DNA of 56,535 nucleotides from an uncultured Endomicrobiia bacterium (GTDB taxonomy: Bacteria > Elusimicrobiota > Endomicrobiia > DTEH01), in NCBI GenBank assembly GCA_938074745.1, contig CALJEJ010000067.1, positions 1 to 56,535 of the forward strand, in the 5' to 3' direction. The notes under the pieces are model-generated. The model was not told the DNA's origin. It made no database searches and saw only the letters and a program-made list of their open reading frames with translations. This document shows, piece after piece, positions 5,521 through 56,535 of this stretch. Position numbers and translations under genes: made by a program. The first letter of the stretch is position 1; each line of letters starts with the position of its first letter.

Positions 5521-7026
5521 TTATTTTATGTTCAAAAAAAATTTTTTTATCACTAAATTAATTCTATTGATAACCCTTTCTTTTCCTAAAAAGAAAAGTA
5601 AATCAAAAAGTCCAGGACCTTCACTACGGCCTGATACCGCTGCACGTAAAAGCTGAAACACTTCTGTAGTTTTATACCCTCGATTAGAACAAAAGTTACG
5701 TAGTTGATGTTCTAAAGTAGTTTTATCAAATTGAGTGATAGTTTGTAACATATCACGGACTTCTATTAAAATTTGTTTTTGAGTATCTAAATAGAAATAT
5801 TTTTTTACCACATTCTCTTTATATTCTATTTCAGTATCAGGTTTAAGGAAAAATTCTATCATATAAGGAATGTCTTTTAATAATTTAATTTTTTGTTGTT
5901 CTAATTGTATAAGTTTAACTATGTATTCCTTAATTTCAGAATTATTGATGTCAATTTTTATTCCATAACTAACAAAAAATGGAATTGAATATTCCATAAG
6001 TTTATAAGGATCTGTTTTACGAATATATTCACTGTTCATCCATAAAAGTTTTTGTTTATCAAATATTGCGGGTGATTTGGAACATCTGGATAAAGAAAAT
6101 TTGTCTATTAATTCCTGTTTTGTAAAAATTTGTTGAGAATCTTCTGTTGACCATCCGAGTAACGCAACATAATTTAATAATGCTTCTGGCAAATATCCTT
6201 CTTTTTTGTATTCTTCTACTGCAACATCGCCAGAACGTTTGCTTAATTTACTTCTATCTGGATTAAGTAACAGTGGTAGATGGGCGAACTGTGGTGGTTG
6301 CCAATCTAAATATTTGTAAATTAAGATATGTTTAGGTGTTGAAGATAACCATTCTTCACCACGGATTACATGGGTGATTTCCATCAAATGGTCATCTACA
6401 ACGTTTGCTAAATGGTAAGTAGGGTAACCATCTGATTTTAATAATACTTGGTCGTCAATAAGAGACCCGTCAAATTCTACTTTATCACGGATAATGTCAG
6501 TAAAAACAATTTTTTCATCAGGGACTTTTAATCTTATGGTATAAGGTTCTATGGCAGCTCTACGATTAGATTCTGTTTCAGACAAGTTTCTACACAGTCG
6601 GTCATATTTAGGTGGTTGTTTGTTTAACAATTGTAATTTTCTTACTTCTTCAAGACGTTGTGGAGAACAAAAACATCTGTAAGCGAACCCTTTTTTAAGA
6701 AGTTCCATCGCATATCTTTTATATATTTCAATTCGTTGGGATTGAATATAAGGTCCATAATCACCTTTTTGATAAATTTTACCGTGAGTATCAAGGTAAG
6801 GACCTTCATCATAATCAAGCCCACTCCAATTAAGAATTGATATAAGATTTTCAGTTGCACCTTCAACATAACGTGTTCTATCAGTGTCTTCTATCCTTAA
6901 TATAAACTTACCATTGTTATTACGTGCGAAAAGATAATTAAACAGTGCTGTACGTAATCCGCCAATGTGTAAAAATCCTGTGGGTGAAGGTGCAAAACGT
7001 ACACGAACAACAGTTGGTTTGTTCAT
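5521..7026 (-). CDS. gltX: Glutamate--tRNA ligase
   Basis: RFAPSPTGFLHIGG, RIEDTD, HVIRGEEW, KLSKR, SGRSEGPGLF. Confidence 0.98.
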   Translation of the reverse strand: MNKPTVVRVRFAPSPTGFLHIGGLRTALFNYLFARNNNGKFILRIEDTDRTRYVEGATENLISILNWSGLDYDEGPYLDTHGKIYQKGDYGPYIQSQRIEIYKRYAMELLKKGFAYRCFCSPQRLEEVRKLQLLNKQPPKYDRLCRNLSETESNRRAAIEPYTIRLKVPDEKIVFTDIIRDKVEFDGSLIDDQVLLKSDGYPTYHLANVVDDHLMEITHVIRGEEWLSSTPKHILIYKYLDWQPPQFAHLPLLLNPDRSKLSKRSGDVAVEEYKKEGYLPEALLNYVALLGWSTEDSQQIFTKQELIDKFSLSRCSKSPAIFDKQKLLWMNSEYIRKTDPYKLMEYSIPFFVSYGIKIDINNSEIKEYIVKLIQLEQQKIKLLKDIPYMIEFFLKPDTEIEYKENVVKKYFYLDTQKQILIEVRDMLQTITQFDKTTLEHQLRNFCSNRGYKTTEVFQLLRAAVSGRSEGPGLFDLLFFLGKERVINRINLVIKKFFLNIK

Positions 7027-7027
7027 T

Positions 7028-7900
7028 TTAATATACTACCTTATTCAATGGATATTCTATAATTCCTTGTGCACCGTTCTTTTTCAACAAAGGGATAATT
7101 TTTTTTACTTCTGATTCTTTTAATACAACTTCTATTGCTACCCAGTCAGGATTGGATAGGTTTGATATAGTAGGATTTTTTAACGAAGGTAGAATTTTTT
7201 CTATTTTAGGTAAATTTTTTTTAGCGACGTTCATTTTTAATCCTACCATACCTTCTGCTTCTAAAGCACCTTTTAATAACATAGCAATATTTTGTATTTT
7301 TTCTTTTTTCCACGGGTCTTTTAACGAAACAAAATTTGCAATAAACCGTGTAGTAGAAACAAGAACTTCGTCAATAATTTTTAGTTTGTTTGCTTTGAGT
7401 GAAGTACCAGTTTCTGTAAGTTCTACAATAGCATCTACCATGTCAGGTACTTTAACTTCAGTAGCGCCCCAAGAAAATTCTACTTCTACTGAAATATTTT
7501 TTTGTTTAAAATATTTTTTAACATAGTTTACAAGTTCTGTGGCAATTCTTTTTCCATTAAGTTGACGAATATTTGTTATCTTAGAATCTTCAGGTACTGC
7601 AACAACCCAACGTACAGGTCTAAACCCTGATTTTGAATATACCAGTTCACAGATTTGTTTCACTTTAGATTTTGTTTCTAATATCCAATCATAACCTGTT
7701 ATACCGCAATCCAACCTACCAGTTTGGACATATTTAGGTATTTCTTGTGCACGGAATAGAATTATTTCAAGTTCTTCATCGTCACAATAAGGTTTATACT
7801 GTCTTTCTTCAGAATAGATTTTAAATCCTGCTTTTTTAAATAGTTCAAATGTAGATTGTTGTAATGAACCTTTTGGTAGACCGAGTTTTAATTTTTTCAT
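7028..7900 (-). CDS. hisG: ATP phosphoribosyltransferase, long form
   Basis: LPKGSLQ, RAQEIP, GATE..VP.MVDAIVELTETGTSL, C-terminal ACT-like regulatory domain. Confidence 0.96.
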   Translation of the reverse strand: MKKLKLGLPKGSLQQSTFELFKKAGFKIYSEERQYKPYCDDEELEIILFRAQEIPKYVQTGRLDCGITGYDWILETKSKVKQICELVYSKSGFRPVRWVVAVPEDSKITNIRQLNGKRIATELVNYVKKYFKQKNISVEVEFSWGATEVKVPDMVDAIVELTETGTSLKANKLKIIDEVLVSTTRFIANFVSLKDPWKKEKIQNIAMLLKGALEAEGMVGLKMNVAKKNLPKIEKILPSLKNPTISNLSNPDWVAIEVVLKESEVKKIIPLLKKNGAQGIIEYPLNKVVY

Positions 7901-51121: not shown

Positions 51122-52216
51122 ATGAGATTAGCGGATATTTTTAAAAAAATTCAACAGGAAAGTTTAGAAAAATCGCATGAAGAAAAAGTTATAGAAGATA
51201 AAACTCAACAAACAAAAACACCCACACCTTCTATAGTAGAAATAGAACGGAAAAAAGAACAAGAAGTTTTACTTATAGAAAAAATTTATGCTGACGCAAT
51301 TTCATACACAAGAACCCTATTTTCTTCATTAGCCCACAAAAAAAACAATATTTCTTTAGAAAACATTTTTGAGGTAATTAAAGGGATAACAACTACAATC
51401 CAACAGTATCCTGATAAGTTATTACTTTATTGTACTTATTCTACACCTGATTCATATATTTATGCTCATAGTGTGAACGTTGCAATATTAACTTCATTAA
51501 TAGGACAAATAAAAAAATTCCCGCAAGAGGAATTGTTTCAACTTACTTTATGTGGTCTGTTACACGATATAGGTATGCTTCGTGTGTTAGATATTGTGAA
51601 CAAACCACAAAAACTTTCTTATGAAGAATACGAGAAGATAAAGAAACATCCGCTATGGACAAAAGAAGAACTTGTTTATTTATCTCTTCCTACAGAATTA
51701 AGAAATCTTTTGAGTGAAATTATTCCCCAGGCCCATGAACGGTTAGACGGTTCAGGTTATCCCTCAGGATTAACTTCACAAGAGATCCATCCTTGGGCAA
51801 AGATAATAAGTATTGCTGATATTTACGAAGCGATGTCTCACCCACGACCATACAGAGATAGGTTCTTAGCACATACTGCAGTAGTAGAACTTATTCGTAT
51901 GGCACAAGGGTTGGTTGATAGTGAAATAACTAAATTATTCGTAGATAGAATATCATTATTCCCTGTTGGCAGTTATGTTAAACTTAGCAGCGGAGATATT
52001 GCAAAAGTTATACAAACGAATATAGGGTTTCCGGTCAGACCTAAGGTTAAGGTTATATTAACTGCAGAAAAAACTGTCCCTGTAACTAATACAGAAATAA
52101 ATCTTGCTAAGGAAAGTAAGATTTATGTCTTAGAACCTCTGGACGAAACTAAACTTGTTGTCCCAGATAAGAGATTGTTACTTCAACTTAAGGCACAACG
52201 TTGGTGGGTAAAGTAA
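51122..52216 (+). CDS. HD-GYP domain protein (putative cyclic di-nucleotide phosphodiesterase)
   Basis: HSVNV, LHDIG, IKKHP, HERLDGSGYP, IADIYEAM..PRPYR, FPVGSYVKL. Confidence 0.92.
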   Translation: MRLADIFKKIQQESLEKSHEEKVIEDKTQQTKTPTPSIVEIERKKEQEVLLIEKIYADAISYTRTLFSSLAHKKNNISLENIFEVIKGITTTIQQYPDKLLLYCTYSTPDSYIYAHSVNVAILTSLIGQIKKFPQEELFQLTLCGLLHDIGMLRVLDIVNKPQKLSYEEYEKIKKHPLWTKEELVYLSLPTELRNLLSEIIPQAHERLDGSGYPSGLTSQEIHPWAKIISIADIYEAMSHPRPYRDRFLAHTAVVELIRMAQGLVDSEITKLFVDRISLFPVGSYVKLSSGDIAKVIQTNIGFPVRPKVKVILTAEKTVPVTNTEINLAKESKIYVLEPLDETKLVVPDKRLLLQLKAQRWWVK

Positions 52217-53070
52217 AAAAGTTGGCTAATATATATTTTTGTTGTATCCCGTCGGAAGTTTATATCAATATATACCCTCCATCACAAAAAATTTCTTTTT
52301 ACATCACGAAAAATTTTAATATATTTTGTATGAATGGGTCTAAAACAATCTCGGCTAAAATAGTTGTCAATCTAAAATTGTATGAAAAAAGTTGCAAGGA
52401 TAAATATCTTTTTGAAAACGGGCAAAAAAGTAAAGAATATACAGAATTTATTAGAGAAGATATTTATTTTAAATACAATTTTGTAAAAAATTTTGCTGAA
52501 GCCAAAATAAACAAAAATGTTTATTCAATTGATTCGGTGTTAAGAATACTATATAGTATTCTGTTGGCAAAAAATTCAGGAATATTATTTCACGCTGCAG
52601 GTATAACAATTGACAACTATGGTTATTTATTTGTTGGTCCTACAGGTTCAGGAAAGTCTACTACTATAAAATGGTTTAGAAAAAATTTTAAAAATTATAA
52701 AAGTTATATTGAACTAAGTGACGAACTTGTTCCTGTGAAGGTTAAAGGTGGGAAAATTTATACTTGGCAAAGTCTGTTTTGGGGTGAACTAAAGAATAAA
52801 ACCGTTTTTCAACAAGGGGATATTTCGATGTTCACATTAAAAAAAATATATTTTTTGTCAGGATTTAATGAAAAAACACAATTAGTTACACCAGTTGGTA
52901 TAAAAGAAACAGTTGAACTGTTATTAAAAAACTTATTTTGGGTGGTAAACTCGCAAATGTTTGCTAACGATATACTTAAAACAGTTACAAATATTGCAAT
53001 GACTGTTCCCGCGTTTAAATTATATCCACCACTTCACAATGATTATAATTTTGTCGAAATATTAAAATGA
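52201..53070 (+). CDS. HPr-kinase-like P-loop protein (RiPP-associated kinase type); start uncertain
   Basis: ILFHAAGI....GYLFVGPTGSGKSTT ... LSDE ... FWGE, the motif order of HprK-related kinases beside PqqD genes. Confidence 0.75.
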   Translation: MVGKVKKLANIYFCCIPSEVYINIYPPSQKISFYITKNFNIFCMNGSKTISAKIVVNLKLYEKSCKDKYLFENGQKSKEYTEFIREDIYFKYNFVKNFAEAKINKNVYSIDSVLRILYSILLAKNSGILFHAAGITIDNYGYLFVGPTGSGKSTTIKWFRKNFKNYKSYIELSDELVPVKVKGGKIYTWQSLFWGELKNKTVFQQGDISMFTLKKIYFLSGFNEKTQLVTPVGIKETVELLLKNLFWVVNSQMFANDILKTVTNIAMTVPAFKLYPPLHNDYNFVEILK

Positions 53071-53330
53071 AATATAAAATTAAACCTAACCTTGCATTTA
53101 GAAAAATTTCTGACGAATATTATATTGTAGATAGCCGAAATTCTATGTTACACAAACTTAACTCTGTAGGAAGTTTAATTTGGGAAGTTTTAAAAAAAGG
53201 TGCTACAGTAAAAGAAATTGTTGAGTTGGTGTATAAAGAATATGAAGTAGAGATAGAAACTTTGACTAAAGATGTAGAAGAGTTTATCACAGAACTAAAA
53301 AATAAATCTTTAATTGAAGAGTATGAATGA
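53067..53330 (+). CDS. PqqD-family RiPP recognition element (stand-alone RRE)
   Basis: 87 aa; LNSVGSLIWEVL...T..EIV.....EYEV......DV.EFI.EL....LI pattern. Confidence 0.92.
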   Translation: MKYKIKPNLAFRKISDEYYIVDSRNSMLHKLNSVGSLIWEVLKKGATVKEIVELVYKEYEVEIETLTKDVEEFITELKNKSLIEEYE

Positions 53331-54354
53331 AGGTTTTAAAAATTTATCAGACGAACTTTTCTGGCAAAGTTATAACAACAGAGTTCCGTTATATTCGTTG
53401 TTAGAAGTTACTTCAAGATGTAATTTTGATTGTATTCATTGTTATATTCCTCAAGAAGTCCGTAGAAAAAACGATGAACTTTCAACAAAAGAAATTATGT
53501 CCTGTTTAGAAGAAATTAAAACTTTAGGCGGGTTGTATACAGTTTTTACAGGTGGTGAACCGTTGTTAAGAGAAGATATTTTTACTCTTCTTGAGTTTGC
53601 TAAAAAATTAAATTTTGTAGTTATACTTTTTACTAACGGAAGTTTGATAAATAAAGAAACAGTTTCTAAAATAATTTCTTGTGGTGTAGATAAAGTTGAA
53701 ATAAGTTTATATGGTAATAAACATTTTCATGAAAAATTTGTCAGAAGGAAAGATGTGTTTTCACAAATTGTTTCTGGGATAAAAATGTTGAAACATAACA
53801 ATATAGATGTTTGTATAAAATCCGTGTTAACAAAATACAACTGGAACCAAAAAAAGTTTTTAGAAAATTTTGCTTATAGTTTAGGTGTGAGATACAAGTT
53901 TGACATAATCTGTACACCTAGAAATAACGGTGATATAATACCAACAACTTTTATCGTTGAAGAAAAAAAGTTGGTCAAACTACTAAAACAATACAATTTA
54001 ACACAGGTGGATATAAAAAAAGATTTTACCACACACATTTTGTGTTCTGCTGGGAGGAACATTGTCGCAGTTTCATCCCGTGGTGAAGTGTATCCTTGTA
54101 TTCAATTTCCATATTTTTTAGGGTCAATAAAGAAAGAAAAATTTGTAAAAATATGGCGAAGAAGTTTTTCTATAGTAGAAAAATTAGAGGAAACAAAACA
54201 ATATCAACAATGTTTAAATTGTGATATTCTTCAATACTGTCGTCGTTGTCCGGGAATAAGTTTTATACAAACACGGACATTATACGGTTGTGATACAGTT
54301 GCAAAACTGTTGGCTTGCGTAACAAGAAAAACTGTTGAAAAAACAGCCGTGTGA
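53323..54354 (+). CDS. Radical SAM/SPASM peptide maturase (ATG 53323 preferred over TTG 53314)
   Basis: CNFDCIHC, TGGEPLL, TNG; SPASM CSAG..VSSRGEVYPC and CLNCDILQYCRRCPG...YGC. Confidence 0.93.
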   Translation: MNEGFKNLSDELFWQSYNNRVPLYSLLEVTSRCNFDCIHCYIPQEVRRKNDELSTKEIMSCLEEIKTLGGLYTVFTGGEPLLREDIFTLLEFAKKLNFVVILFTNGSLINKETVSKIISCGVDKVEISLYGNKHFHEKFVRRKDVFSQIVSGIKMLKHNNIDVCIKSVLTKYNWNQKKFLENFAYSLGVRYKFDIICTPRNNGDIIPTTFIVEEKKLVKLLKQYNLTQVDIKKDFTTHILCSAGRNIVAVSSRGEVYPCIQFPYFLGSIKKEKFVKIWRRSFSIVEKLEETKQYQQCLNCDILQYCRRCPGISFIQTRTLYGCDTVAKLLACVTRKTVEKTAV

Positions 54355-54369
54355 TAAATATCACATTTG

Positions 54370-54399
54370 TTGACTGGTTAAGTCCAAATTTTGTATTTA
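54370..54399 (+). promoter_or_regulatory. Weak promoter candidate upstream of precursor peptide gene
   Basis: TTGACT (54370-54375), 18 nt, TATTTA (54394-54399), 7 nt before ATG 54407. Confidence 0.25.
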
Positions 54400-54406
54400 T
54401 TTTACT

Positions 54407-54562
54407 ATGAAAAAAGAAGATAAAAAAAAGAAAAAGAAGTACCAGAAACCTACAGTTGTTTCAGAAAAAATTTTTGAACAAGCAGCGCTTGCCTGCGGGA
54501 AATGTATTTCTGGCAATCCTGTGTTTAAAGGCGGCTGTGTATATGTCCCCAGGTTGTCATAA
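54407..54562 (+). CDS. Putative RiPP precursor peptide, 51 aa; not in ORF track
   Basis: Own translation MKKEDKKKKKKYQKPTVVSEKIFEQAALACGKCISGNPVFKGGCVYVPRLS*; fills the gap between rSAM and peptidase; YxxP leader motif; Cys-rich C-terminal part. Confidence 0.88.
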   Translation: MKKEDKKKKKKYQKPTVVSEKIFEQAALACGKCISGNPVFKGGCVYVPRLS

Positions 54563-54617: not shown

Positions 54618-54959
54618 ATGAAAATCGTGGTGGTAAAACTTGCCGGTGGTTGTATGCGACCATTGTTAAGAAATGGTCAAACAGTGTTAATTATTCCTCC
54701 ACGCAAAAAGTTGTATCTCGGCGATTTGGTTTTATACAAAATTGCTGAACAGTTGTTCCTTCACAGAGTGGTTAAACTTTCCTCACAAAGTGTAGTTGTT
54801 AATGACGACTGTGGTATTACTTCCTATATTACAGTTCCATTAAAAGATGTGATAGGTATATGTCCAACTATTTTATCCGGTTTTTTAGGATACATATATC
54901 ACATTTTTATAAGAACAATCTATACAACTTTCAGATGGATAAAAAAATTGTTGCTATAG
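54618..54959 (+). CDS. S24/S26-fold peptidase-like protein with Cys at the nucleophile position
   Basis: GGCMRPLL..GQTV, LGDLVLY, LHRVV, VIG matches the GxSMxP / GD / HR pattern with S->C. Confidence 0.78.
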   Translation: MKIVVVKLAGGCMRPLLRNGQTVLIIPPRKKLYLGDLVLYKIAEQLFLHRVVKLSSQSVVVNDDCGITSYITVPLKDVIGICPTILSGFLGYIYHIFIRTIYTTFRWIKKLLL

Positions 54960-54984: not shown

Positions 54985-55821
54985 ATGGAACAAAAATTGT
55001 CGTATCTATCCTATTGGGGACTTAAAGAATTACCGTTTTCTACAACACCTGATGTAAGATATTTTTATTTTTCAAAAGAACATGAAGAAGCGTTCGTCAG
55101 ACTTAAATTTGTGATAGAACACAAAAAACCTTTGTGTATGATAACAGGCGAGTATGGCAGTGGCAAGACACTTCTTTGCAATTTCCTTATCTCCAAACTT
55201 TCTTTGAACAATTACCAGTTTGTATATTTAGGCAACCCGTTTGTCCCTCAGGAAGAACTAGTACACAATTTAGTTTTGTTTTTAACCCGAGTAGGTGGGG
55301 GGGGTATAGAGAAACTTCCAACTAAATATACAGAGTTGGTGCAGTTGTTTGTTGAAATAGTAAATCGTAACTTCCAAATTGGTAAACATACAGTGATATT
55401 TTTTGACGAAGCACACCTTGTTGAAGATATAAAAGTTTTTGAACAACTCCGAGTTTTGTTAAACAGTGCAGGTCAAAATACGTCTTCTTTAAGTATAATT
55501 TTGTTAGGACAAACAGAGTTAAGAGAAAAGATTGCTTCTTTAGGACAGTTTAAGTCAAGAATTACATATCATTACCATATAAAAAATCTTGATAAAGAAG
55601 AGGTGGCAGAATATATAAAACACAGGTTACTTGTAGCAGGCCATCCTACGGGCGAGTTGTTTTGCAAGTTCGCAGTGGAAGAAATTTATAATCTAACTTT
55701 GGGTTTGCCAAGGACAATAAATAATATATGTGATGTAAGTTTAATGCTTGGTATGGCTAAAGGTGTGGAGAAAATTCATAAAGAAATAGTGGTGGAAGCG
55801 AAAGAAGAAGTGATGTTGTGA
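54985..55821 (+). CDS. ExeA/GspA/MshM-family AAA ATPase
   Basis: Y..YWGLKELPFSTTPD..Y.Y....H.EA, ITGEYGSGKTLL, FDEAH, LLGQTEL, T.GLPRTIN.ICD. Confidence 0.9.
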   Translation: MEQKLSYLSYWGLKELPFSTTPDVRYFYFSKEHEEAFVRLKFVIEHKKPLCMITGEYGSGKTLLCNFLISKLSLNNYQFVYLGNPFVPQEELVHNLVLFLTRVGGGGIEKLPTKYTELVQLFVEIVNRNFQIGKHTVIFFDEAHLVEDIKVFEQLRVLLNSAGQNTSSLSIILLGQTELREKIASLGQFKSRITYHYHIKNLDKEEVAEYIKHRLLVAGHPTGELFCKFAVEEIYNLTLGLPRTINNICDVSLMLGMAKGVEKIHKEIVVEAKEEVML

Positions 55822-55825
55822 AAAT

Positions 55826-55906
55826 ATAGTTTCAAAAGTTTCAGAAGTTTCAATAGTTTCAAAAGTTTCAGGAGTTTCAATAGTTTCAGAAGTTACAAAA
55901 GTTTCA
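55826..55906 (+). repeat. Tandem array of nine 9-bp units, consensus (A/G)(A/T/G)AGTTTCA, with loose 27-bp superperiod
   Basis: atagtttca aaagtttca gaagtttca atagtttca aaagtttca ggagtttca atagtttca gaagttaca aaagtttca, read directly. Confidence 0.97.
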
Positions 55907-55920
55907 AGGGGGAAAGGAAG

Positions 55921-56451
55921 GTGAAGATTGAGAAGTTTGAGGATATAATTGCTTGGCAAAAAACGAGAGAACTTGTTAAAGAAATTTATAGGATAACGAA
56001 GAATGAAGAATTTTCAAAAGATTATTCTTTAAAAGACCAGATACAACGTGCAAGTGTTTCTATTATGTCAAACATAGCAGAGGGGTATGAACGTGGGACG
56101 AAAGAAGAGTTGATACAATTTTTATACATTGCTCGTGGCTCGTGTGGTGAAGTAAGAAGCCAGTTATATATTGCTTATGACCTAAATTATATAAGTTTGC
56201 AAGAGTTTCAAAAGTTGCAAAAGTTAGCGATAGAGGTTTCAAGGTTAATTTATCATTTTATTGAATACTTAAAAGGAGCAAGGATTAGAGGACAGAAGTT
56301 TAGAAAACCTAAAGTGAAAAGTTTCAGAGAGGAAATAGAAGAATTATTAAAAACTTATACAACTTCTGAAACTCCTGAAACTATTGAAACTTCTGAAACT
56401 CCTGAAACTAATCAAATTAACGAGAACAATGACGGAACTAAGCAACTTTGA
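55921..56451 (+). CDS. Four-helix-bundle protein (Avd / 23S-IVS-protein-like) with repeat-derived C-terminal tail
   Basis: FEDIIAWQK, F.KDYSLKDQIQRASVSIMSNIAEGYER, F..IARGSCGEVRSQL; purine-rich SD AGGGGGAAAGGAAG before GTG. Confidence 0.93.
   Translation: MKIEKFEDIIAWQKTRELVKEIYRITKNEEFSKDYSLKDQIQRASVSIMSNIAEGYERGTKEELIQFLYIARGSCGEVRSQLYIAYDLNYISLQEFQKLQKLAIEVSRLIYHFIEYLKGARIRGQKFRKPKVKSFREEIEELLKTYTTSETPETIETSETPETNQINENNDGTKQL
56361..56411 (-). repeat. Inverted copy of the 9-bp array (five full units plus a partial) inside the four-helix-bundle ORF
   Basis: aacttc tgaaactcc tgaaactat tgaaacttc tgaaactcc tgaaactaa is the reverse complement of the NNAGTTTCA units; encodes TSETPETIETSETPET. 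Confidence 0.95.
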
Positions 56452-56455
56452 ATTG

Positions 56456-56524
56456 AAAGTTACAAAAGTTACAAAAGTTTCAAAAGTTTCAATAGTTACA
56501 ATAGTTTCAATAGTTTCAAAAGTT
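56456..56524 (+). repeat. Downstream direct array of seven 9-bp units plus a partial
   Basis: aaagttaca aaagttaca aaagtttca aaagtttca atagttaca atagtttca atagtttca aaagtt. Confidence 0.97.
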
Positions 56525-56535
56525 AGGGCACTGTT

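Follow-up and report, generated by a model that had tools for sequence, protein, structure and literature searches.

The window analysed here is a stretch of 56,535 nucleotides from an uncultured Endomicrobiia bacterium (GenBank assembly GCA_938074745.1, contig CALJEJ010000067.1, positions 1 to 56,535 of the forward strand), and the element under study is a gene of 51 codons at positions 54407–54562. The gene is genuine and under purifying selection, its residue pattern is conserved, and it is associated with four partner genes whose folds and families were identified. It is probable, although well short of certain, that the 51-aa peptide serves as the ribosomally made precursor in a maturation cassette of five genes, namely the precursor, an S26-type peptidase, an HprK-related kinase, PqqD, and a radical S-adenosylmethionine (SAM) enzyme with a SPASM domain. 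The cassette is a widespread and undescribed relative of the linear polyphosphorylated peptide (LPP) systems that contains a radical SAM enzyme. The precursor gene and its conserved elements are listed below; RRE stands for the recognition element of peptides that ribosomes make and that are modified after translation (RiPPs).

54407–54562, forward strand: precursor peptide gene, ATG to TAA, 51 amino acids plus stop, supported by translation, homologues, and a pN/pS of 0.25
54440–54442 and 54449–54451, forward strand: codons of Y12 and P15
54440–54451, forward strand: Y12-Q-K-P15, the YxxP motif of the leader, predicted to bind the RRE (Y in 155/157 and P in 157/157 members)
54473–54481, forward strand: F23-E24-Q25, counterpart by homology of F(-3)E(-2)T(-1) in LPP leaders, with candidate cleavage site Q25|A26 (T or Q in 73%)
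54485–54496, forward strand: A27-L28-A29-C30, an A-x-A candidate site A29|C30 followed by the invariant Cys, from family frequencies
54494–54496, 54503–54505, and 54536–54538, forward strand: codons of C30, C33, and C44
54536–54559, forward strand: C44-x6-S51, the conserved last Cys and the C-terminal Ser, a predicted phosphorylation site (family frequencies; precedent of lasso kinases)
54557–54559 and 54560–54562, forward strand: codon of S51 and stop codon

The open reading frame (ORF) translates to MKKEDKKKKKKYQKPTVVSEKIFEQAALACGKCISGNPVFKGGCVYVPRLS followed by the stop codon, which matches letter for letter the translation given in the first-pass annotation of this DNA. That annotation also described the ORF as hidden, which was incorrect: the gene predictions of NCBI, JGI, and ENA already contain it without a name. 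The radical SAM/SPASM gene ends 52 bases upstream and the small peptidase gene lies 55 bases downstream, all on one strand. A homology search in relatives, proposed earlier as a check, recovered conserved homologues. The protein search returned 10 homologous clusters of 47–58 aa with 63–98% identity (NCBI, JGI, ENA, and Logan assemblies; all unnamed). A genome scan found 15 loci in species-representative genomes, namely 13 Elusimicrobiota/Endomicrobia metagenome-assembled genomes (MAGs), one Methanobacteriaceae MAG, and one Acidobacteriota MAG. When a precursor profile was searched against 1.8 billion representative proteins, 207 clusters were obtained at E ≤ 1e-3, and a metagenome scan confirmed at least 563 loci for one distant precursor subclass alone. 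No model in Pfam or NCBIfam matched the precursor. A second precursor copy was searched for in the window and was not found, so the gene is present as a single copy.

Selection on the reading frame was estimated from 11 orthologues. The ratio of nonsynonymous to synonymous polymorphism (pN/pS) was 0.25 in the precursor frame, compared to 1.25 and 1.90 in the other two frames. Variability was found at 36 of 40 third codon positions but at only 11 of 40 second positions.

Residue frequencies were analyzed in 157 members in the standard register, anchored on the first Cys, which corresponds to C30 of the window peptide. The distance from the leader Tyr to this Cys was exactly 18 residues in 157 of 160 members. 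The YxKP leader motif pointed out earlier was retained across the family, with Tyr at position -18 in 155 members and Pro at -15 in all 157. Two residues after the Pro, at -13, a hydrophobic I, V, or F is present, and S/T followed by Glu occupies -11 and -10. Position -7 is F in 82% and Y in 11%, -6 is E in 98%, and -5 is T in 50% and Q in 23%; this third position of FE-x is otherwise R, V, K, A, S, or H. Next to the Cys, A is found at -3 in 87% (otherwise S, T, V, or L), L at -2 in 97%, and A, S, or G at -1 in 89%. The Cys itself is invariant (100%) and is followed by G in 75% and K in 82%.

Past C-G-K, the precursor sequences diverge into subclasses. A leader that is conserved across phyla and a core that is variable are as expected of a RiPP precursor, and the proposal that the peptide is such a precursor is supported. 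At the other end, a C-terminal Ser is present in 153 of 163 family members and in all 82 members of the soil subclass. The last Cys stands 7 residues before the end (C-x6-Ser-COOH) in 111 of 163 members and in 80 of 82 soil-subclass members. Both features point to the neighbouring HprK-like kinase. The first-pass annotation had emphasized a core with three Cys. C30 and C44 are indeed family-wide, but C33, the second Cys in C-x-K-C, is present in half of the family and absent from the other half. Judged from the alignment, the invariant features of the core are C30, C44, and S51 rather than three Cys. The precursor at the Acidobacteriota locus (L022) has a longer and different core ending in PRS, and a larger second ORF (6256–7662 of that locus; 468 aa, with CxxxCxxC) lies between the precursor and the peptidase.

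The four partner genes lie directly around the precursor gene in the window.

52201–53070, forward strand: ScmC-like, HprK-related P-loop protein, a predicted peptide kinase (family matches and fold)
53067–53330, forward strand: stand-alone PqqD-family RRE, 87 aa (PF05402, 3e-17)
53323–54354, forward strand: radical SAM/SPASM maturase, with an alternative TTG start at 53314 (PF04055, 3e-23; PF13186, 1.3e-8)
54618–54959, forward strand: S26 peptidase of the Sec11/SipW type, 113 aa (profile against PDB, model, and fold search)
54651–54653 (TGT), 54762–54764, and 54807–54809, forward strand: codons of peptidase Cys12, His49, and Asp64

The association of these genes was confirmed in related genomes in three gene orders. 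The window and its Endomicrobia relatives share the order ScmC-like gene, PqqD, radical SAM, precursor, peptidase. In two loci (L018 and L019), the radical SAM gene stands last, after ScmC-like gene, PqqD, precursor, and peptidase. In the soil subclass, the precursor and peptidase come first and are followed by the ScmC-like gene, PqqD, and radical SAM; all four partners were present in 17 of 21 soil-subclass loci having at least 4.5 kb on both sides. The peptidase was found in 15 of 15 genome loci, with L020 and L022 read by eye; the L020 peptidase was missed by tblastn and was recognized when the ORFs were read. The precursor stop overlaps the peptidase start (ATGA) in L003 and L005. The contig of L017 begins within the cassette, and its ScmC-like gene is cut off.

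The peptidase was assigned from its sequence profile and its model. The best PDB match of the family profile was human SEC11A (7p2p, E = 1.4e-7), and the GxSMxP, HR, and Asp motifs align with it. The model has a predicted local distance difference test score (pLDDT) of 93, and the fold search matched LexA and signal peptidases. The adjacent protein, previously called S26-like, therefore has the Sec11/SipW signal-peptidase fold. It lacks an N-terminal membrane anchor and has one C-terminal helix. His49 and Asp64 are invariant in the family alignment. The nucleophile column is Cys (G-G-C12-M-R-P) in all 10 Endomicrobia-clade sequences, compared to Ser in 5 more distant sequences of the same alignment (A3) and in 62 of 62 soil-subclass peptidases.

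The ScmC-like protein was linked to HprK by its fold and by family scans of individual members. PF27840 (ScmC) was found in its relatives. Below the NCBIfam cut-offs, 13 of 14 members matched TIGR04352 (HprK-related kinase A) and 10 of 14 matched ScmC. The model has a pLDDT of 80, and the fold search matched PEPCK and HprK/P (1knx, 3tqf, and 1kkl). The HprK link rests on these two approaches because a sequence-only PDB search with the family profile gave P-loop matches only, with HprK at E = 0.26. A His, the P-loop Lys, and an Asp are invariant in the alignment, and the residue next to the Asp is Asp or Glu.

The best scores of the adjacent PqqD were against lasso and LPP RREs. Its best NCBIfam match is the lasso PqqD chaperone, below the cut-off, and its family profile scored LppB-type RREs at 42–58 bits vs 33–38 bits for lasso B1 proteins. 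The radical SAM protein carries CNFDCIHC (CxxxCxxC) and the SPASM Cys set, with a full SPASM domain. It scored below every curated NCBIfam cut-off (StsB 85 bits vs 625, PapB 64 vs 340, and AlbA 63 vs 850), and its best full-length alignments were to MftC and PqqE. The closest PDB sequences were SkfB (E = 2.6e-11) and PqqE, in matches confined to the radical SAM core.

The nearest characterized systems are the LPP clusters lppA-K-B-S-D-N of Paenibacillus alginolyticus, a member of the Bacillota (Popov et al., Nat Commun 2026, PMC13381572). Their set comprises SipW-like LppS (Ser29/His68/Asp93), the discrete RRE LppB, HprK-like LppK, an NTP-transferase, and an MsbA-type pump, and the leader consensus is YxxPxVLxHQxIxFETxxS (PMC13381572). 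LppS cleaves after F(-3)E(-2)T(-1) only with LppB, with the P3 Phe in a hydrophobic cleft, and LppK puts up to four phosphates on core Ser3 (PMC13381572). According to the same paper, no RiPP pathway with a signal-peptidase homologue had previously been described, LPPs occur in Bacillota alone, and YxxP binds discrete RREs in lasso and LPP systems. The cassette shares with LPP clusters a stand-alone PqqD-type RRE of the LppB kind, an HprK-like kinase (by fold and family, with kinase activity predicted), a SipW/Sec11-type signal-peptidase homologue, which in LPP was shown experimentally to be an RRE-dependent leader peptidase, and the K-K-x-Y-x-x-P-x-[VI] leader motif with F-E-T downstream. The fold and motifs of the window peptidase fit the LPP type with its Ser-His-Asp centre beside a discrete RRE, but Cys12 replaces the Ser.

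Several features differ from LPP systems. The present cassette includes a radical SAM/SPASM enzyme as an integral and conserved component. Neither an NTP-transferase nor an MsbA-like exporter was found in the window cassette, its neighbours, or the related loci examined. The core is short, with 2–3 conserved Cys and an invariant terminal Ser, whereas LPP cores are long and variable with phospho-Ser at +3. FE-x is 2 residues nearer to YxxP, and Leu instead of Ser occupies the +3 position behind FE-x. No N-terminal docking helix is present in the peptidase, whose Ser nucleophile is replaced by Cys in the Endomicrobia clade. The cassette occurs in Elusimicrobiota, in soil bacteria resembling Acidobacteriota, and in a methanogen MAG, in contrast to the Bacillota of LPP. 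Membership of LPP in the strict sense is ruled out by the missing NTP-transferase and pump, the missing Ser at +3, and the added radical SAM enzyme.

The LPP paper mentions neither a radical SAM enzyme nor Elusimicrobia, and neither term occurs in the portion of its supplementary text that was available. Its Supplementary Data 1 lists an uncharacterized cluster 3 of the sequence similarity network (SSN), which holds RRE-linked signal-peptidase homologues from Acidobacteriota, Schekmanbacteria, Desantisbacteria, Chloroflexota, and Myxococcota. Our peptidase profile scored sequences of SSN cluster 3 from that table at 49–62 bits, compared to 35–38 bits for the LppS type and 32 bits for true SipW. 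By these scores, the SSN cluster 3 proteins may belong to the cassette described here. No description of the cassette or of the precursor family was found in the searched literature.

Other RiPP systems share parts of the cassette. Lasso kinases with a His-Lys-Asp-Asp motif act on the linear precursor, whose extremely conserved C-terminal Ser is mono- to polyphosphorylated (PMC9266682). Paeninodin-type lasso systems (PadeK, ThcoK, and SyanK) resemble the cassette in their YxxP/WxxP leader, a discrete PqqD-type B1, an HprK-like kinase with His, Lys, and Asp-(Asp/Glu), and the C-terminal Ser, which is 94–100% conserved here. The precursor family also carries the lasso-type pattern YxxPx[L/V/I], with RRE binding predicted. 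The radical SAM/SPASM enzyme and the S26 peptidase stand in place of B2 and the cyclase: no B2 transglutaminase-type protease and no Asn-synthetase-like cyclase were present among the cassette and flanking ORFs. The earlier statement that a lasso macrolactam is impossible also holds, as the window core has no Asp or Glu. A lasso peptide was ruled out in the absence of a lasso cyclase, a B2 protease, and an acidic acceptor.

Sactipeptide and ranthipeptide systems (subtilosin, SKF, and freyrasin) likewise place a SPASM radical SAM enzyme beside a short Cys-containing precursor, and thioether-forming SkfB is the closest solved sequence. They differ in that the RRE is an N-terminal enzyme domain there and a separate protein here, and that they lack a kinase and an S26 peptidase. 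The SynChlorMet (Scm)/HPr-rel-A systems, described computationally in NCBIfam/TIGRFAMs, combine an HprK-related ScmC-like protein with a PqqD homologue and a radical SAM/SPASM enzyme. In comparison, one radical SAM gene is present here instead of two, and the precursor and the S26 peptidase are identified here. The window proteins scored 19.8 bits vs a cut-off of 125 for ScmC, 21.2 vs 100 for ScmD, 86 vs 400 for ScmE, and 69.6 vs 400 for ScmF. Membership of a curated sactipeptide, ranthipeptide, or Scm family was ruled out, as all scores were below the cut-offs.

From these likenesses we infer a pathway of RRE binding, core cross-linking, phosphorylation, and leader cleavage, with all steps expected to be cytoplasmic. 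By analogy to LPP and lasso systems, the stand-alone PqqD would bind the leader through Y12-x-x-P15 and the following β-strand residues and would present the peptide to the other enzymes. The radical SAM/SPASM enzyme would then modify Cys30, Cys44, and, in the subfamily of the window, Cys33, at a fixed distance from YxxP. Thioether formation is the commonest chemistry of SPASM enzymes beside Cys-bearing cores, and the likeliest products would be thioether cross-links of the sactionine or ranthionine type. The HprK-related protein would phosphorylate the C-terminal Ser51, possibly several times, as lasso kinases do. Finally, the Sec11/SipW-type peptidase, with its putative Cys12-His49-Asp64 centre in the Endomicrobia clade, would remove the leader in a PqqD-dependent manner, with the cut behind either A27-L28-A29 or F23-E24-Q25. 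The constant C-x6-Ser-COOH spacing could reflect a single C-terminal ring formed between the last Cys and the (phospho)Ser terminus. By analogy, the cassette would be a hybrid that combines recognition, phosphorylation, and trimming of the LPP/paeninodin type with core modification of the SPASM type.

The site of leader cleavage was weighed among three candidates. A cut at A29|C30, as originally proposed, would release the 22-aa core CGKCISGNPVFKGGCVYVPRLS with an N-terminal Cys, and we place it first, although with less than even confidence. The family fits the -3/-1 rule of signal peptidases (A 87% at -3; A, S, or G 89% at -1), and in three members with indels between FE-x and the Cys (P0095, P0127, and P0051) the small-x-small triplet stays adjoining the Cys. 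Conservation also falls soon past C-G-K. Against this cut, LppS, the sole characterized homologous peptidase, cuts directly after F-E-T, and FE[T/Q] is kept four residues upstream here; moreover, about 7% of members have a non-small residue at -1 (Q, K, I, R, W, N, or F). An LPP-type cut at Q25|A26 ranks second as a serious but doubtful candidate. It would release the 26-aa core AALACGKCISGNPVFKGGCVYVPRLS, and the A-L-A-C-G-K block would be a recognition or modification site of the radical SAM enzyme. Here homology links the peptidase to LppS and the RRE to LppB, F-3, E-2, and T-1 of LppA are required for cleavage but core positions 1–5 are not, and the FE motif (F 82%/Y 11% and E 98%) is better conserved than A(-3) and A(-1). 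Conversely, P1 is variable (T 50%, Q 23%, also R, V, K, A, S, or H), and the distance from Tyr to the scissile bond is 14 residues compared to 16 in LPP. The helix at the N terminus by which LppS docks on LppB is also missing from the window peptidase, so the cleavage geometry may differ from that of LppS. UmuD is cleaved at a Cys-Gly site, and an analogous cut at C30|G31 appears improbable, given that the enzyme belongs to the S26B (Sec11) rather than the LexA type. The remaining odds fall to a cut elsewhere.

Several results weigh against the precursor-cassette interpretation as a whole. Two loci (L001 and L002) contain the precursor and peptidase without kinase, PqqD, or radical SAM genes within 7 kb, and four soil loci hold orphan precursors (L069, L070, L081, and L089, with two in L070). 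No exporter gene was found in or beside the cassette in the window and the related loci examined, which is unusual for a secreted natural product. The chemistry of the radical SAM enzyme cannot be read from homology, since it falls below every curated family cut-off. The leader profile aligned KKxYxxP and FET with 11 LPP precursors across a 2-residue gap at a non-significant E of 0.07–5; because of this, homology of the leader to LPP is claimed on motif resemblance and homologous partners only. A sequencing-run search for the locus returned a marine metagenome only, probably the source sample, and no RNA run. The Cys-for-Ser change in the Endomicrobia clade could also impair the peptidase. This change need not inactivate the enzyme, since Tschantz et al. 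1993 reportedly found the S90C mutant of E. coli leader peptidase to be active. The orphan copies would agree with a small protein with Cys residues that stays unmodified, binds metal or acts as a regulator, and is a mere neighbour of the enzymes, as would the three Cys and the basic N-terminus; yet the YxxP leader in fixed register, the linkage to PqqD, radical SAM, kinase, and peptidase in three gene orders across phyla, and the highly conserved leader with a variable core make this very unlikely. The peptide might instead, like PqqA and MftA, serve as scaffold for a cofactor-like small molecule that is built from the C-terminal C-x6-S region, excised, and kept intracellular. The missing exporter, the best full-length alignments of the radical SAM enzyme to MftC and PqqE, its work with a stand-alone PqqD, and an invariant C-terminal residue as in MftA agree with a scaffold. 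We regard it as unlikely, since MftC/PqqE family scores are far below the cut-offs, the conserved neighbours of the cassette include no second peptidase, oxidoreductase, or cofactor-dependent partner enzyme, and the core varies greatly among subclasses, as is typical of peptide products. The precursor of a maturation cassette remains our preferred interpretation of the 51-aa peptide.

The surroundings of the cassette contain a possible control region and a signalling gene.

51122–52216, forward strand: HD-GYP-type (HD_5) protein (PF13487, 2.4e-22), whose end overlaps the start of the ScmC-like gene
54350–54365, forward strand: perfect CRP-type palindrome TGTGATAAATATCACA, which overlaps the stop codon of the radical SAM gene
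54350–54399, forward strand: promoter-like element private to the precursor gene, with its function predicted

The palindrome is the sole TGTGA-N6-TCACA within the 56.5-kb window. It is followed by TTGACT at 54370–54375, a spacer of 17–18 nt, a weak -10 element (GTATTT/TATTTA), and 7 nt to the precursor ATG. The same layout of CRP palindrome and promoter-like element recurs in L003, L008, and L013. A consensus promoter scan did not list the site upstream of the precursor because its -10 element is weak, and no terminator was found. The layout suggests that the precursor has a regulated, nearly leaderless transcript of its own, with a predicted start near 54406–54407. The HD-GYP-type gene stands directly upstream in Endomicrobia-clade loci and is absent from L016–L022; it may link the cassette to cyclic di-GMP signalling. 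Together with the missing exporter, the CRP-type site and the HD-GYP neighbour could indicate that the product acts in signalling, inside the cell or at the envelope, rather than as an antibiotic.

Further observations concern the flanking regions. An AAA_22 ATPase gene (54985–55821) follows the peptidase gene and resembles the XrtA/PEP-CTERM-associated ATPase (157 bits vs a cut-off of 324). An AAA_22 ATPase is also located 3' of the peptidase in L003, L005, L009, and L011–L013, with 95% identity in L011. L003 and L005 contain a second copy upstream, beside PIG-L, WecA-like glycosyltransferase, and DegT genes. Positions 55741–56535 of the window contain short tandem repeats around and inside a gene for a four-helix-bundle protein (23S rRNA intervening sequence protein); the repeats translate to ETSETPETIETSETPET on one strand and LKLLKLLKLLK on the other. 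The orphan precursor with a Ser-type peptidase lies at 7001–7637 of L001 and 517–1153 of L002, where the pair is flanked by a GGDEF response regulator and by BacA, GlgE, glycosyltransferase, and NTP-transferase genes.

We tentatively propose, as a possibility of somewhat less than even weight, an undescribed RiPP class that spans several phyla and whose product would be a short peptide with two or three Cys cross-linked by a radical SAM enzyme and a phosphorylated C-terminal Ser, released by an enzyme of the signal-peptidase fold that has switched to a Cys-His centre in Endomicrobia. The substrate of the cassette is identified, and the conserved positions that matter are the leader Tyr and Pro, FE-x, A-L-A-Cys, the last Cys, and the terminal Ser. 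The cassette, a small one of five genes and about 2.8 kb, is abundant in soil and sediment metagenomes. It could reveal how a radical SAM/SPASM enzyme acts when coupled to an HprK-type peptide kinase, whether leader peptidases of the signal-peptidase fold obey the A-x-A or the F-E-T rule, and whether a natural Cys-His version of this fold works.

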